A stretch of 64,000 nucleotides of DNA from an uncultured Candidatus Saccharibacteria bacterium (GTDB taxonomy: Bacteria > Patescibacteriota > Doudnabacteria > UBA920 > 2-01-FULL-46-14). Below are positions 21,858-25,651 of the stretch, one piece after another. The stretch is from assembly GCA_964360335.1 (NCBI GenBank), contig CAYHVH010000002.1:804-64803 (forward strand), in the 5' to 3' direction. The position numbers and the translations under genes were made by a program. A model generated the notes under the pieces. It was given only the letters and a program-made list of their open reading frames with translations. It ran no database searches and was not told the DNA's origin. Every line of letters starts with the position of its first letter. Position 1 is the first letter of the stretch.

Positions 21858-23792
21858 ATGAAAAAAGAAGAGAAGAAAAAAACTAGCCCAGGTAGCGAAT
21901 ATGGTGCCGAGCAAATTACGGTCCTTGAGGGACTGGAGCCGGTGCGGAAACGGCCAGCGATGTACGTCGGGAACACGGCCGAGGGCGGGCTGCATCATTT
22001 GCTGTGGGAAGTGATAGACAACGGGATTGACGAGGCGATGGCCAGTTTTGCGAAACTCATCGACGTCACGATTCACGCCGACGGCTCCGCGACCGTACGG
22101 GATGACGGCCGGGGGATTCCCGTTGAGACACATAAACAGACGAAAAAGTCGTCCTTGGAGACGGTGCTCACTATGCTCCACGCCGGCGGGAAGTTCGGGG
22201 CGGGCGGCTACAAAGTTTCCGGGGGGTTGCACGGTGTGGGAGTTTCGGTCGTGAATGCCCTGTCTGAATGGATGGTGGCCGAGGTCAGACGCGAGGGAAA
22301 AATTTACGTGCAGGAGTACGCGCGGGGAAAGCCAAAGAGCAAGGTCAAACAGGTGGGCAGAGTCGCCCCAGCTGATCCGTGGCAAACCGGCACCAGGATT
22401 TCTTTCAAGTCTGATCCCCAGATTTTTACGGTCCTAGATTTTGATTTGAAAACCGTCCTTGACCATCTGCGCCAACAGGCGTATTTGACCTCTGGCGTGA
22501 GGATAAAAGTTGTGGACGAGCGTTCCCACTTTTTCTATCAATTTTACTTCGAGGGCGGTTTGGTCTCCTACGTCCACCAAATTAATCGCAAGAAAATGGC
22601 TATCAATTCGCCGATTTACCTCAACAAGACTCTGGAAAACATTCAGGTCGAGGCGGCTGTGCAATATACCGGCGATTTCTCGGAGACGCTTTTGGCGTTT
22701 GCCAACAACATCCATACTGTGGAGGGGGGGATGCATGTTACGGGCTTTAAATCGGCGCTCACCCGTTCGCTCAACAACTTCGCGGTAAAAAACGGCTACT
22801 TCAAGGAATCCGACAAGTTGACCGGCGATGACATGCGGGAGGGACTCACGGCCGTTGTGAGCGTGAAGCTGCAGAACCCGCAGTTTGAGGGCCAAACCAA
22901 AGCCAAGCTGGGCAACGCCGAGGTCCGAACGGTCGTGGAGCAAGTGGTCGGCGAGGGATTGGAAATTTACCTGGAAGAACATCCCAAGGACGCCCAACGG
23001 ATCATCGAAAAGGTTAGTCTGGCGGCCAAGGCGCGTCTCGCCGCCCGGGCGGCGCGAGACGCAGTTATCCGCAAAGGCGTCCTGGAGGGATTGACCTTGC
23101 CCGGGAAACTCGCGGATTGTTCCGAATCCGATCCGGCAAAATGCGAGCTTTACATCGTGGAAGGGGATTCGGCGGGCGGTTCCGCCAAACAGGGGCGCGC
23201 CCGGCTGTTTCAAGCGATCCTGCCTCTGCGCGGCAAAATCCTGAATGTCGAGCGGGCGCGCCTGGACAAGATTCTAACCAACAACGAAATCAAAAATTTA
23301 ATCATTGCCATGGGCGCCGGAGTTGGGGAGCAGTTTGAGCTTGCAAAGCTTCGTTATTACCGAATCATCATTATGACCGACGCGGATGTGGACGGGGCGC
23401 ATATTAGGACCCTGCTTTTGACCCTGTTCTACCGGTACTTTCCGGAGATTATCCACGCTGGCTATTTATATATTGCCCAACCCCCGCTTTATCGGATGCA
23501 GGCCGGAAAAACCGTGCGGTACGCCTATAATGATACCGAGAAGGCGGAATTTCTGGAGGAGATGAAAGGGGAAAATGTCTATATCCAGCGCTACAAAGGT
23601 TTGGGGGAAATGAATCCATCCCAGCTCTGGGAGACGACCATGGATCCCCAAAATCGGGTGATGCTCCAAGTTAGGGTTAAGGACGCGCAGGAAGCCTCGG
23701 ATATTTTCGAGACTTTGATGGGCGACGAAGTCGGCCCGCGGAAGAAATTCATTCAAACGCACGCCAAAACCGTTAAGAATTTGGATATTTAG
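21858..23792 (+). CDS. gyrB: DNA gyrase subunit B
   Basis: [28 protein letters not shown] ATPase, TOPRIM (EGDSAGGS) and the C-terminal [10 protein letters not shown]...QRYKGLGEM are all canonical GyrB. Start at ATG 21858 (MKKEEKKK); the track's upstream extension covers the repeats and is rejected. Confidence 0.95.
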
Positions 23793-23816
23793 TCGACTGT
23801 TCAATAATCAAAACGC

Positions 23817-24527
23817 ATGATACGGGGAATCGCTTTTGATCTTGAGGGCCCGATTATTAATGTGGAGTCTATTCACTTCGAAGCTTTTGTACGTGCTGCA
23901 AAAGGATTGGGTATCGATATAACGTTCGAACGAATTGTTCAAGCAATCCCTAATGCGATTGGCGGTGGAGATAAAGTTATATCAGAGGGGATCTCTAAGA
24001 TGGCTGGGGGGCGCGTCTCTGCCGAGGACGTTCATGACCGCAAACGGCAGGTGTACGATGAGCTTATAGAGACGGAAACAATCACGATGCGCGATGGTTT
24101 CAAAGAGGTTCTGGATTATTTTACACAGCAAAAGATTCCTATCTCCATAGGCTCTCTGACTCCCGTGAACCAAGCTCGTTTATTGCTGGAGAGATCCGGA
24201 CTCGACAGGTTTATTCCCCCAGAAAAAATCGTGCTCCAAGATGCGGTAAGAAATTTGAAGCCCGCACCCGATGTGTTCCTCGAGACCGCTCGTCGCATGA
24301 GGATTTCTCCTACAGAGCAATTAATTTTCGAGGATTCTGTACCCGGAGTACTGGCAGCTCGCGCGGCTCACTCGCTCGTTATTGCGGTTCCGGTTTACGC
24401 CTTTTCTGAAAATTTACTACAAATAGTCGAAGCCGGTGCGAATAGGGTTTTTGTGGATTGGAAGGAAATGAACATTGATCAGGTTTTCCGTAATCTCCAA
24501 AAAGACTCCGCAACATATTCCTCATGA
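23817..24527 (+). CDS. HAD-superfamily phosphatase (subfamily IA-like)
   Basis: N-terminal IAFDLEGPI (DxD-type motif I), ..SIGSLTP.., FEDSVPGVLAARAA (motif IV region). 236 aa. Confidence 0.75.
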   Translation: MIRGIAFDLEGPIINVESIHFEAFVRAAKGLGIDITFERIVQAIPNAIGGGDKVISEGISKMAGGRVSAEDVHDRKRQVYDELIETETITMRDGFKEVLDYFTQQKIPISIGSLTPVNQARLLLERSGLDRFIPPEKIVLQDAVRNLKPAPDVFLETARRMRISPTEQLIFEDSVPGVLAARAAHSLVIAVPVYAFSENLLQIVEAGANRVFVDWKEMNIDQVFRNLQKDSATYSS

Positions 24528-24572
24528 ATAAATTTGTTTTGGTAATGCTTTAATATTAATGTATCTGCGTAC

Positions 24573-25532
24573 ATGAAAAAAACGGTGAATGTTGGGGGCA
24601 TTCCGGTCGGGGCGGATTATCCAGCTCTGGTTATAGGAGAGATAGGTATAAACGCCAATGGCGTTATGGATATCGCAATGAAGCTGATTGATGTTGCCGC
24701 AGATGTTGGGTGTGGTGCCGTCAAGTTCCAAAAGCGCGATATTAATAAAGTTTTCTCAGCAGACGCGCTGGCGAAATCCTGGGCAGGGGGGATGCCCGCA
24801 GAGTTGCTCCAAAACGCAATTGCCAGAGGAGTTCTTCAGGAAGAGAATGTAAGACGTTTACGGGCAACGAATTTCTCGGATGTTACAGAAGGCGATTTCA
24901 GATGGACGATCGAGTTTACGGAGGAAGAGTTCAAACAAATTGACGCATACTGTAAAAAGAAGGAGATTATATGGTACGCCTCTCCCTGGGATATGGAGAG
25001 TGTGGACGTACTTGAGCGGCTCGGGGTACCATGTTACAAGGTCGCGTCTGCATCGATCTCGGATCATCCGCTTTTGAAGCATATCCGGTCAAAAGGTAAG
25101 CCCGTTATCCTTGCAACCGGGATTAGCGAGATGAACGAGGTAGATGCCGCGGTGGATATTCTGGGCAGAGAGAACCTTATTATTCTACATTGTGTTTCCA
25201 CTTATCCGTCCGAAGACTCTGAGCTGAATCTCCGCGTCATTCATACTCTACAGAATCGCTTTCCCGGTGTTCCCGTCGGCTACAGTGGACACGAGCGGGG
25301 TGTAGCGACATCAGTGGCGGCAGTGGCCCTTGGTGCCTGCATGGTTGAGCGGCATATTACGCTTGATCGCGGAATGTATGGCCCTGATCAGGCAGCTAGT
25401 GTCGATCCAGAAAACCTCCGAATAATGGTCCGCGATATTCGGAGTGTTGAGGCCGCGCTTGGTGATGGTGTGAAACGTTTTCTCGATAGGGAGCGCCCCG
25501 TCAGAAAAATGTTGGAGACCCGCTCTTCCTAA
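24573..25532 (+). CDS. NeuB-family PEP-dependent ulosonic/nonulosonic acid synthase (TIM-barrel part; no C-terminal SAF domain)
   Basis: ALVIGEIGINANGVMDIAMKLIDVAADVGCGAVKFQKR and ILHCVSTYPS...GYSGHERG match NeuB/SpsE. 319 aa, ending before the usual antifreeze-like (SAF) domain. Confidence 0.8.
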   Translation: MKKTVNVGGIPVGADYPALVIGEIGINANGVMDIAMKLIDVAADVGCGAVKFQKRDINKVFSADALAKSWAGGMPAELLQNAIARGVLQEENVRRLRATNFSDVTEGDFRWTIEFTEEEFKQIDAYCKKKEIIWYASPWDMESVDVLERLGVPCYKVASASISDHPLLKHIRSKGKPVILATGISEMNEVDAAVDILGRENLIILHCVSTYPSEDSELNLRVIHTLQNRFPGVPVGYSGHERGVATSVAAVALGACMVERHITLDRGMYGPDQAASVDPENLRIMVRDIRSVEAALGDGVKRFLDRERPVRKMLETRSS

Positions 25533-25555
25533 GTATGTCGTTAGGTAAGTAAGGG

Positions 25556-25651
25556 TCGGACATCTTCGAGACCCTGATGGGCGACGAAGTCGGCCCGCGG
25601 AAGAAATTCATTCAAACGCACGCCAAAACCGTTAAGAATTTGGATATTTAG
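25556..25651 (+). repeat. Second copy of the gyrB 3' end (last ~96 bp including the stop)
   Basis: 25576-25651 is 76/76 identical to 23717-23792. The preceding 20 nt differ only at synonymous codon positions ([10 protein letters not shown] versus [10 protein letters not shown]). Confidence 0.85.

Follow-up and report, generated by a model that had tools for sequence, protein, structure and literature searches.

The locus lies within a 64-kb window, which is the whole stretch of DNA that was analyzed. It comprises an intact gyrB gene, two cargo genes and a second copy of the gyrB 3′ end that stands before a terminator-like site and secE (Table 1). The insert measures 1.76 kb and is approximately 95% coding, with non-coding spacers of 24, 45 and 23 nt, and its left side is uninterrupted gyrB. 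The GyrB protein scored 916 bits against TIGR01059 (cut-off 882), with residues 66 to 695 covered. The mechanical open reading frame starts at 21705; the true start probably lies near 21861-21885, because GyrB proteins of relatives are 642 to 645 aa long.

Table 1. Features of the gyrB-secE region, given as positions in the window.
Feature	Position	Strand	Description
gyrB	21885..23792	+	Intact, full length; TIGR01059, four GyrB Pfam domains
Repeat copy 1	23697..23796	+	Last 32 codons of functional gyrB and 4 nt past the stop; T alleles at 23702, 23705, 23714, 23715
Identical block in copy 1	23717..23792	+	76 nt equal to 25576-25651, including the stop codon
Left junction/spacer	23793..23816	+	24 nt, gyrB stop to HAD start
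Cargo gene 1, HAD	23817..24527	+	HAD-IA (beta-phosphoglucomutase-like) sugar-phosphate phosphatase, 236 aa, intact; PF00702/PF13419
Cargo gene 2, NeuB-like	24573..25532	+	Short NeuB-family PEP-dependent sugar synthase, 319 aa, intact; PF03102 3.4e-78
Right junction	25533..25555	+	23 nt, NeuB stop to gyrB-tail copy; apparent non-homologous join
Repeat copy 2	25556..25656	+	Displaced gyrB tail, 32 codons with stop; C alleles (GAC ATC .. ACC CTG)
Native gyrB intrinsic terminator (putative)	25678..25705	+	Stem-loop and T-run, terminator-like site
secE	25936..26118	+	Conserved right neighbor of the variable spacer; then nusG, rplK, rplA
Assembled joins			gyrB (T alleles) to TCGACTG-HAD; NeuB (C alleles) to CTCGATTT-terminator

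The Pfam matches listed in Table 1 confirmed that the cargo genes encode a HAD phosphatase and a NeuB-like synthase, as called in an earlier reading of the sequence (the original prediction). In the HAD protein, the motifs AFDLEG, S..T, K and EDS were invariant across its CPR subfamily in our alignment. The match to TIGR02009 stayed under the cut-off, and the best solved structure was TM_1254, a phosphorylated carbohydrates phosphatase. Its closest homologues share at most 55% identity, and those with a name come from Patescibacteria. In the second protein, which carries an insertion of about 40 to 50 aa after residue 61, the NeuB domain was the only one detected, and nothing in it matched the C-terminal portion of full-length NeuB. 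It scored below both equivalog cut-offs (TIGR03569: 259 bits, cut-off 400; TIGR03586: 202 bits, cut-off 340), and the equivalog match stops near profile position 276 of 329. Judged by these profiles, it is a member of the Pfam NeuB family (PF03102) but neither a NeuB/PseI equivalog nor of the full-length architecture. The best solved structure was 6ncs (290 aa). Its closest homologues share at most 58% identity, the named ones being mostly from other CPR lineages. Since cargo homologues are only 55-58% identical at best, the source lineage appears to be unsampled. We also considered a conserved HAD-NeuB module and dropped it. NeuB homologues in Niyogibacteria and Giovannonibacteria lie in glycan loci with CMP-sugar cytidylyltransferase, Capsule_synth and Wzy_C and have no adjacent HAD gene, so the pairing is no widespread operon. 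The composition of the cassette differs mildly from its surroundings, with a tetranucleotide distance at the 92nd percentile and a GC3 of 0.45-0.51 compared with 0.56-0.68 in most adjacent core genes.

The last 96 nt of gyrB (23697-23792) reappear at 25556-25651. Taken as a direct repeat of 104 nt (23689-23792 and 25548-25651) the copies are 93% identical, while blastn aligned 96 nt at 95.8% identity (E = 1.6e-41), the sole such match within the window. The spacing is 1859 nt start to start, with 1783 nt between the copies. In agreement with the original prediction, 76 nt at the end of gyrB recur exactly about 1.78 kb downstream, with 76 of 76 positions identical including the TAG stop. The differences in the preceding 20 nt had been described as confined to synonymous third positions. 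All four T/C differences are indeed synonymous, but one of them is the first position of a Leu codon (TTG/CTG). Both copies translate to the same peptide of 31 residues. The likeness reaches 4 to 5 nt beyond the stop (TAG-TCGA in copy 1, TAG-CTCGA in copy 2), and similarity tests on both flanks gave no extension of the repeat beyond its limits; a GTTAGG..TAAGG likeness upstream of copy 2 was within chance and was dropped as longer homology.

In six relatives, only 61 to 65 of the same 76 positions match the copy, and a perfect match has a probability of about 2e-6 at a per-site identity of 0.84. Gene conservation is thus no explanation for the identity of the two blocks. The chance that all four differences would be synonymous is about 0.002 under random changes, and their clustering has a probability of about 0.001-0.007. 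Being both synonymous and clustered, they indicate that two functional gyrB alleles met, rather than that one copy is decaying; on this evidence, a second functional gyrB allele took part at the locus. A mutational signature (all four positions being T in copy 1 but C in copy 2) was dropped as synonymous constraints mostly explain it and the probability of a common direction is about 0.125. With no start codon, and with its frame closed by a TAA two codons upstream, copy 2 is predicted to be untranslated.

The two copies lie in different contexts. No terminator lies in the left spacer, which is not homologous to the post-gyrB DNA of any relative. At the right join (25555|25556), no similarity to gyrB upstream of 23697 was detected (local alignment score 17, shuffle mean 15.3). 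The 65 nt following copy 2 align with the 65 nt directly after gyrB in the relative L086 with a score of 40 (shuffles: mean 13.1, maximum 27, 0 of 300 reaching 40), whereas the DNA after copy 1 shows no homology to this post-gyrB terminator. The homology identifies copy 2 as the displaced native gyrB end, and thus the right-hand copy appears to be the one in ancestral context, still on its native terminator. This terminator presumably now closes a gyrB-HAD-NeuB transcript. Co-transcription of the cargo with gyrB is most likely because the two genes lie ahead of this terminator and no other one stands between them and the gyrB stop.

For comparison we used six relatives from Candidatus Doudnabacteria with a gyrB amino acid identity of 79-86%. 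The gene order pheS-gyrB-[variable]-secE-nusG is kept in all six, with the gyrB-secE spacer empty in two and filled with other unrelated DNA in four. The empty site that had been predicted is present, the distance from gyrB to secE being 75 nt in L088/L089 and 274 nt in L178/L179. Neither HAD-NeuB nor a gyrB tail duplicate was found in any of the 6 close relatives or in 149 more distant gyrB loci, and no flanking repeats were found around the relatives' own spacer inserts. Wider contig and metagenome scans with GyrB returned generic gyrB motif matches at 62-63% identity, which served as the background set for tail duplication; the empty site was not seen among them. A spacer that is empty or differently filled between two very conserved genes marks a small local hotspot of accessory genes within this clade of Doudnabacteria, a setting in which flanking homology moves accessory DNA between strains. 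A mosaicism scan of gyrB (sliding-window GC3 and identity to the six relatives) was uninformative, with a third-position identity of about 0.4-0.5 and saturated synonymous sites, and this saturation extends to the closest gyrB (86% amino acid identity).

The arrangement recurs, at an identity of at least 99.8%, in contigs assembled separately from Hainich well H51. Two independently assembled contigs (L081 and L082) span both repeat copies, and single junctions are contained in L084 (left) and in L083 and L091 (right). Assembly ambiguity would mean that an empty gyrB-terminator-secE site and a separate 1.86-kb circle or tandem array (HAD-NeuB-tail) were threaded together via the 76-nt exact repeat. 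This repeat is longer than the k-mers commonly used in assembly, two contigs are broken within it (L085 starts at 23763, L092 at 25597) and coverage is low (2-5x, from contig names). We nevertheless regard such an artifact as extremely improbable. The contigs spanning both copies have the integrated order, the three single-junction contigs agree with it, and no contig joins gyrB to the terminator or NeuB-tail to HAD. A 1.86-kb circle without a replication gene is an implausible replicon. Moreover, the NeuB-tail join shares no sequence with upstream gyrB, so that a graph error could not have created it. Exact look-ups of NusG, GyrB, HAD and NeuB gave only cassette-bearing Hainich H51 contigs and no conspecific empty-site variant; neither such a site nor an excised circle junction was found in any assembled contig.

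Signatures of mobile elements were searched for in the window and in sequence collections. No recombinase, integrase, resolvase or transposase domain was detected by Pfam in the cassette, its neighbors and the main open reading frames scanned across the window, consistent with the original prediction that no integrase is present, and the suggested search for integrase remnants near the insert likewise gave no recombinase domain in these frames. The further idea of a decayed islet is not supported, as an insert that is 95% coding with such short spacers could not accommodate the remains of an integrase. The window has no tRNA gene, and a small-RNA target was dropped with only sub-threshold chance matches to Rfam in 23000-27000. 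No inverted repeats or short target duplications were found at the insert ends (23793/25555). A transposon or insertion sequence was rejected on the lack of a transposase domain and of inverted repeats and on the length (about 100 nt) and inexactness of the duplication. An integron gene cassette was rejected as well, there being no integrase domain and no repeated or palindromic attC-like element in the 45-nt HAD-NeuB gap. No phage or plasmid DNA matched the cassette, and no viral contig carried the cassette or the gyrB tail, which was sought exactly and at the codon level; viral contigs yielded generic NeuB relatives only (47-48% identity). A literature search found nothing on gyrB as an integration site.

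We propose that the locus is the scar of an integrase-independent, homology-assisted recombination event, an origin that we consider probable, if by a small measure. A one-ended variant, homologous on one side and illegitimate on the other, is a realistic form of this event to which we assign somewhat less than even weight. Starting from the ancestral order pheS-gyrB-terminator-secE, the donor would have been a closely related strain with HAD and NeuB just downstream of gyrB, whose DNA entered the cell, probably as a linear fragment from the environment. The gyrB part of the donor would have paired and recombined homologously with resident gyrB, leaving an invisible left junction, while the other end of the donor DNA, which lay 23 nt beyond the stop of NeuB, would have been joined without homology 96 nt before the resident gyrB stop. 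The product of this process, homology-facilitated illegitimate recombination, would be a functional gyrB with the incoming tail (copy 1), the two cargo genes, and the displaced resident tail (copy 2) with the native terminator. What is found at the locus is one junction of the homologous and one of the non-homologous kind, with resident sequence kept downstream in its native context, and the lack of homology upstream of 25556 is expected of an illegitimate join. The direct repeats of about 100 nt would permit exact loss of the cassette by recombination. The original prediction of extra DNA inserted at the gyrB 3′ end together with a replacement tail fits the intact gyrB, and of the two options it offered, the second, in which DNA of a related strain recombined, is the better fit; the second functional gyrB allele at the locus is in line with its suggestion of a diverged allele. 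None of the relatives proved to have gyrB-HAD-NeuB, and no donor was found. A perfect stretch of 76 nt beside four differences in 20 nt needs a near-identical donor with a patchy allele, or later gene conversion. Also counting against our reading, the cases of homology-facilitated illegitimate recombination known to us usually delete rather than duplicate recipient DNA.

The option first named in the original prediction, an element that targets gene 3′ ends, would require a small element whose attP resembles the end of gyrB, inserted by a recombinase of the tyrosine or serine type that lies elsewhere in the genome or has been lost. The locus would then be an island, cis-mobilizable or decayed, in which copies 1 and 2 represent attL and attR, respectively. 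This topology is matched by direct repeats of 96-100 nt derived from the end of a gene, by a target that has stayed intact and by the empty site of relatives, and the gyrB-like 20 nt with other synonymous codons could be the element's own arm. Site-specific integration is nonetheless unlikely. No recombinase gene is apparent in the main frames scanned across the window, neither site reuse nor an attP was found, with the tail duplicate missing from all close and distant loci compared, and other spacer cargo in this clade has no flanking repeats. No phage, plasmid or viral carrier of cassette or tail was found, and with the spacers as short as they are, a decayed integrase must have been removed precisely, leaving both repeats perfect. 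We know of no integrative element with gyrB as its attachment site. Host RecA could instead have inserted a circle carrying about 100 nt of gyrB tail and HAD-NeuB by a Campbell-type single crossover within the 76-nt identical block, the circle having popped out of a strain with the same arrangement or being a circularized fragment. Such an event yields the exact structure observed, with 25555|25556 as the point of circle closure and the crossover in the longest perfectly identical stretch, and it agrees with the lack of a recombinase domain in that no dedicated recombinase is necessary. We rate it as quite unlikely, however, since it requires a circular double-stranded donor without a replication function and naturally transformed DNA is normally linear and single-stranded. 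In addition, about 100 nt of homology gives low recombination efficiency, no contig joins NeuB, tail and HAD, and the logic is circular, as the circle arises most easily from a genome that is already duplicated.

Template switching would explain an insertion with a long duplication and junctions without homology, again without a recombinase. A stalled fork or broken end near the gyrB end would have copied a foreign or ectopic cassette and re-primed about 100 nt upstream to give an exact duplication, with the four differences arriving later from an imported foreign gyrB allele in a tract ending near 23716. It also gives a possible reason why the differences cluster at the inner margin of copy 1, since a donor without the cassette would have to resolve before the homology runs out at the stop of gyrB. 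With two independent rare events required, no direct sign of an imported tract in gyrB, and no feature that positively separates it from homology-assisted recombination, we give this explanation a slim chance. It is just as doubtful that the cassette is a minimal recombinase-free mobile unit using the gyrB 3′ end as a homology 'address tag'. Recombination of one tail with the other would release a 1.86-kb circle, and once conspecific or related CPR cells had taken up this DNA, homologous recombination of the host would place it behind their gyrB. If this were true, cargo would invariably arrive downstream of a strongly expressed essential gene and ahead of the terminator of that gene, and the variable spacer between gyrB and secE in relatives would record repeated traffic of this sort. 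There is no sign of a new kind of mobile element at this locus, which reads as a clean one-off recombination scar.

The closest parallels are 'orphan' displaced 3′ ends in Rhs, CDI and T6SS effector loci, which have been attributed to homology-facilitated illegitimate recombination (PMC5361080, which cites de Vries & Wackernagel 2002 and Prudhomme et al. 2002). As in those loci, incoming DNA would have given a conserved gene a new 3′ end plus cargo and moved the resident 3′ end downstream as an untranslated remnant, with one junction homologous, the other not, and no dedicated recombinase. The 3′ ends in Rhs, CDI and T6SS loci are variable toxin domains, and several orphans accumulate in arrays, whereas here a housekeeping gene is affected, both tails encode the same peptide, and a single displaced copy and metabolic cargo are present. 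Elements that restore the 3′ end of their target gene include SCCmec at rlmH/orfX and streptococcal ICEs at fda, rplL, guaA and rumA. They resemble our locus in the direct repeats of the target 3′ end around foreign DNA, the intact target and the empty site in relatives. The present insert differs in having no integrase, excisionase or transfer gene and in consisting, at 1.76 kb, to 95% of two metabolic genes; its site is not reused in the other genomes examined, and gyrB is no known attachment site. CIMEs, which are att-flanked islands without recombination genes described in Streptococcus thermophilus, share the flanking direct repeats and the absence of a recombinase of their own. They carry, however, att sites of an identifiable ICE family whose integrase is able to act on them, and we know of no cognate element or integrase for the gyrB cassette. 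Campbell-type insertion-duplication, as in the laboratory integration of suicide plasmids, gives the same topology by duplicating a gene fragment on both sides in a single crossover. It needs a circular donor, and to our knowledge no natural case with about 100 nt of homology and without a vector backbone has been documented.

In conclusion, we describe a groundwater Doudnabacteria (CPR) genome that gained two sugar-metabolism genes just after gyrB. It represents one event in one population, by a mechanism already known in principle. CPR/Patescibacteria have tiny genomes with few recognizable mobile elements, and their gain of accessory genes is poorly documented. The locus offers a clean natural case: the two junctions and the displaced end of the native gene are preserved, as is the empty site of relatives, so that the acquisition route can be reconstructed. 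This route points towards homology-assisted capture from a close relative and not towards an integrase. With a PEP-dependent sugar synthase and a sugar-phosphate phosphatase as cargo, the acquisition suggests a change in surface-glycan chemistry.

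The final 96 nt of gyrB are present a second time downstream of a HAD phosphatase gene and a NeuB-family gene (the cassette), with 95.8% identity by blastn (E = 1.6e-41), and blastn of the 64-kb window returned no further match comparable to this repeat. In agreement with the original prediction, the 76 nt at the 3' end of both tails, stop codon included, are identical (76/76). The same stretch matches at only 61-65 positions in six relatives and, at about 84% per-site identity, 76 matches out of 76 would have P ~2e-6, so that gyrB conservation does not account for the identity. 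The first 20 nt of the repeat contain four differences (23702, 23705, 23714 and 23715), each a T in copy 1, the end of functional gyrB, and a C in copy 2. All are synonymous, as had been predicted, and both copies encode the same peptide; however, the differences are not confined to third codon positions, since only three of the four occupy these and the remaining one changes the first base of a Leu codon. Copy 2 has no start codon and is preceded two codons upstream by an in-frame TAA, making it an untranslated remnant. Past the stop, likeness lasts 4-5 nt (TAG-TCGA vs TAG-CTCGA) and then ends, and local alignment of the 150 nt flanking the repeat on each side gave scores not above those of shuffled sequences.

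Features of the window around the gyrB tail duplication and corresponding loci of relatives
Feature	Position (nt)	Remarks
Seven tandem paralogous ORFs	19-900, 900-2399, 2406-3503, 4143-5597, 7586-9214, 9211-10590, 10602-12059	together 19-12059
Second HAD hydrolase	5594-6199	among the tandem paralogues
REP-like short hairpins	12696, 12947, 21715, 21788, 41166, 56440	dispersed
pheS	20488-21669	
gyrB, mechanical ORF	21705-23792	stop at 23792
gyrB, probable true start	near 21861-21885	
Copy 1	23697-23792	
Spacer gyrB-HAD		24 nt
HAD hydrolase	23817-24527	
Spacer HAD-NeuB		45 nt
NeuB-family gene	24573-25532	
Spacer NeuB-copy 2		23 nt
Copy 2	25556-25651	
Terminator-like hairpin and T-run	about 25678-25705	3' of copy 2
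57-nt direct repeat	25735-25791, 25877-25933	just 5' of secE start
Promoter-like TTGCAT-17 nt-TACAAT	25801-25829	
secE	ATG at 25936	followed by nusG, rplK, rplA, dcd
VirD4/TrwB-like ATPase	49160-50758	24 kb from cassette
L088/L089 gyrB-secE spacer		75 nt, empty
L178/L179 gyrB-secE spacer		274 nt, empty
L180/L181 gyrB-secE spacer		821 nt, one 123-aa ORF
L182 gyrB-nusG interval		about 800 nt, 55-aa ORF; secE not called
L087 cargo in gyrB-secE spacer	9990-11285	431-aa orphan ORF
L086 cargo in gyrB-secE spacer	10002-14115	in a spacer of 4.4 kb; MrcB_N+HNH nuclease-like protein and six small orphan ORFs
L087 pheS and pheT	3941-8004	canonical
L180/L181 GIY-YIG ORF	14398-14685	95 aa, free-standing, between thyA and folA

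The arrangement recurs in independent assemblies from the source, groundwater well H51 at the Hainich site (ERZ1292623, ERZ1292627, ERZ1292639, ERZ1292641 and ERZ1292643; run ERR3858114). The contigs retrieved by exact-protein look-ups are without exception at least 99.7% identical to the window and stem from separate assemblies, covering three 0.1-µm replicates, two 0.2-µm samples and an assembly from Logan. On two of these contigs (L081, L082) both copies are present in unchanged order, L084 covers the left junction, L083 and L091 cover the right junction, and L085 and L092 end within the repeat, like unresolved repeats. The junctions of the integrated form read from gyrB with the T alleles into TCGACTG-HAD, and from NeuB with the C alleles into CTCGATTT-terminator. 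An empty site coexisting with a 1.86-kb circle would yield identical k-mers, but no contig favours this state and a circle of that size without a replication gene is implausible. Moreover, the join between NeuB and the second tail (25555|25556) has no sequence in common with upstream gyrB and hence could not be created by a graph error. We consider such assembly ambiguity very improbable.

The closest GyrB proteins are 79-86% identical, several of them labelled Candidatus Doudnabacteria. Their loci share the order UvrD/PDDEXK, 298-aa ORF, CAP (minus strand), 121-aa ORF, TSP3, pheS and gyrB, followed by a variable spacer and secE, nusG, L11 and L1. The predicted empty site was found in two of the six relatives (L088/L089 and L178/L179), and the spacer is differently filled in the others; accessory DNA in this clade thus has a small hotspot in the gyrB-secE spacer. 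Neither HAD-NeuB after gyrB nor a second gyrB tail is present in any of the relatives' loci, no repeats flank their spacer inserts (including those of L086 and L087), and a tail duplicate was found in 0 of 149 more distant background gyrB loci. In the window and most relatives, PheS is a single protein of 378-393 aa with an FDX-ACB anticodon-binding domain, an architecture resembling monomeric mitochondrial PheRS; L087 carries canonical pheS and pheT at this locus. Neither the window nor the remaining relatives have the GIY-YIG ORF of L180/L181.

Both cassette genes are intact. The HAD protein belongs to type IA and is beta-phosphoglucomutase-like, with the phosphorylated-carbohydrate phosphatase TM_1254 as its best solved relative; its catalytic motifs are invariant across the subfamily, whose named members are Patescibacteria. 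The NeuB-family protein consists of the NeuB domain only, falls short of the equivalog cut-offs for NeuB and PseI and has its closest solved structure in 6ncs (290 aa). Nearest database relatives of the two are only 55-58% identical, and most of the named ones belong to Patescibacteria of other lineages. Two of these lineages have their NeuB homologue within glycan-biosynthesis loci (cytidylyltransferase, Capsule_synth, Wzy_C), with no HAD gene adjoining it. Cassette composition deviates mildly from its surroundings (tetranucleotide distance at the 92nd percentile of same-size windows; GC3 of 0.45-0.51 vs 0.56-0.68 in most core-gene neighbours).

The 65 nt 3' of copy 2 align with the 65 nt directly 3' of the gyrB stop in L086, terminator hairpin included (score 40 vs a shuffle mean of 13.1 and maximum of 27; 0/300 shuffles reach 40), and DNA 3' of copy 1 has no match downstream of gyrB in any relative. 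Because only the DNA behind copy 2 matches in this way, copy 2 and its 3' DNA are the ancestral gyrB end, before which the cassette and a replacement tail would have been placed. The cargo now separates the gyrB stop from the gyrB terminator. As no terminator-like site was found on the plus strand in between, transcription likely reads through from gyrB into the cargo.

Under random substitution, all four differences would be synonymous with P ~0.002, indicating that two functional gyrB alleles gave rise to the 20-nt segments. Copy 2 thus did not simply decay, and DNA of a related strain probably took part, which bears out the diverged-allele option of the original prediction. Homology-facilitated illegitimate recombination is the simplest single event: a fragment from a close relative with HAD-NeuB directly 3' of gyrB would have paired with the resident through its gyrB part, while its far end, 23 nt past NeuB, would have been attached 96 nt short of the resident stop in a join that needed no homology. 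gyrB would then end in the incoming tail and the resident tail be pushed downstream. That the insertion was integrase-independent and homology-assisted is somewhat favoured; its specific one-ended homologous and illegitimate form is a tentative proposal falling short of even chances. The four differences are clustered (P ~0.001-0.007), and no model alone explains 76 identical nt beside 20 nt with four differences; this pattern needs either a near-identical donor whose allele is patchy or subsequent gene conversion involving the two copies.

The alternative reading of the cassette as an integrative element or decayed islet draws on the repeat structure, which resembles the attL/attR of gene-3'-end-targeting elements. 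Unlike these, the gyrB locus has no recombinase and no site recurrence: the main ORFs scanned across the window contain no recombinase or transposase domain, the gyrB 3'-end site is not used again in relatives or the 149 distant loci, and the insert holds 92 nt of non-coding DNA, too little to conceal an integrase remnant. The window has no tRNA gene, and cassette and gyrB tail are absent from phage, plasmid and viral-contig collections. This part of the original prediction was not upheld, and site-specific integration by a recombinase acting in trans or since lost is unlikely. A Campbell-type single crossover with a circle bearing one gyrB tail is slightly less likely still. Two further readings are improbable to the same degree: a template switch in the course of replication or repair, with a gyrB allele imported afterwards, and a recombinase-free cassette for which the gyrB tail serves as homology address. 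Transposon and integron cassette were also considered as identities of the cassette and rejected.

Several further features were observed in the window. Each tandem paralogous ORF ends in a conserved block of ~180 nt, which is a PEP-utilising-enzyme mobile domain (PF00391) in the four paralogues scanned, the remainder of these having no Pfam match. Two of the REP-like hairpins (CCCTCCCC..GGGGAGGG) fall within the extra 5' part of the 695-aa gyrB ORF, so that gyrB probably starts further downstream, matching relatives of 642-645 aa; the gyrB profile match begins at residue 61-66. The 57-nt direct repeat brackets hairpins and the promoter-like sequence; since it is not conserved 5' of secE in relatives, it is apparently another small local duplication. 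The VirD4/TrwB-like coupling-protein ATPase (TrwB_AAD_bind, T4SS-DNA_transf) is adjoined by ORFs without Pfam match.

Where its features can be examined, the gyrB locus conforms to 3'-end displacement through homologous and illegitimate recombination; for the orphan 3' ends of T6SS, Rhs and CDI loci the same reasoning has been put forward (PMC5361080). The locus is a well-preserved one-off acquisition scar, of a kind already known, in a CPR genome. It marks a local hotspot and offers a clear example of a Patescibacteria genome gaining accessory genes without recognisable mobile-element machinery.
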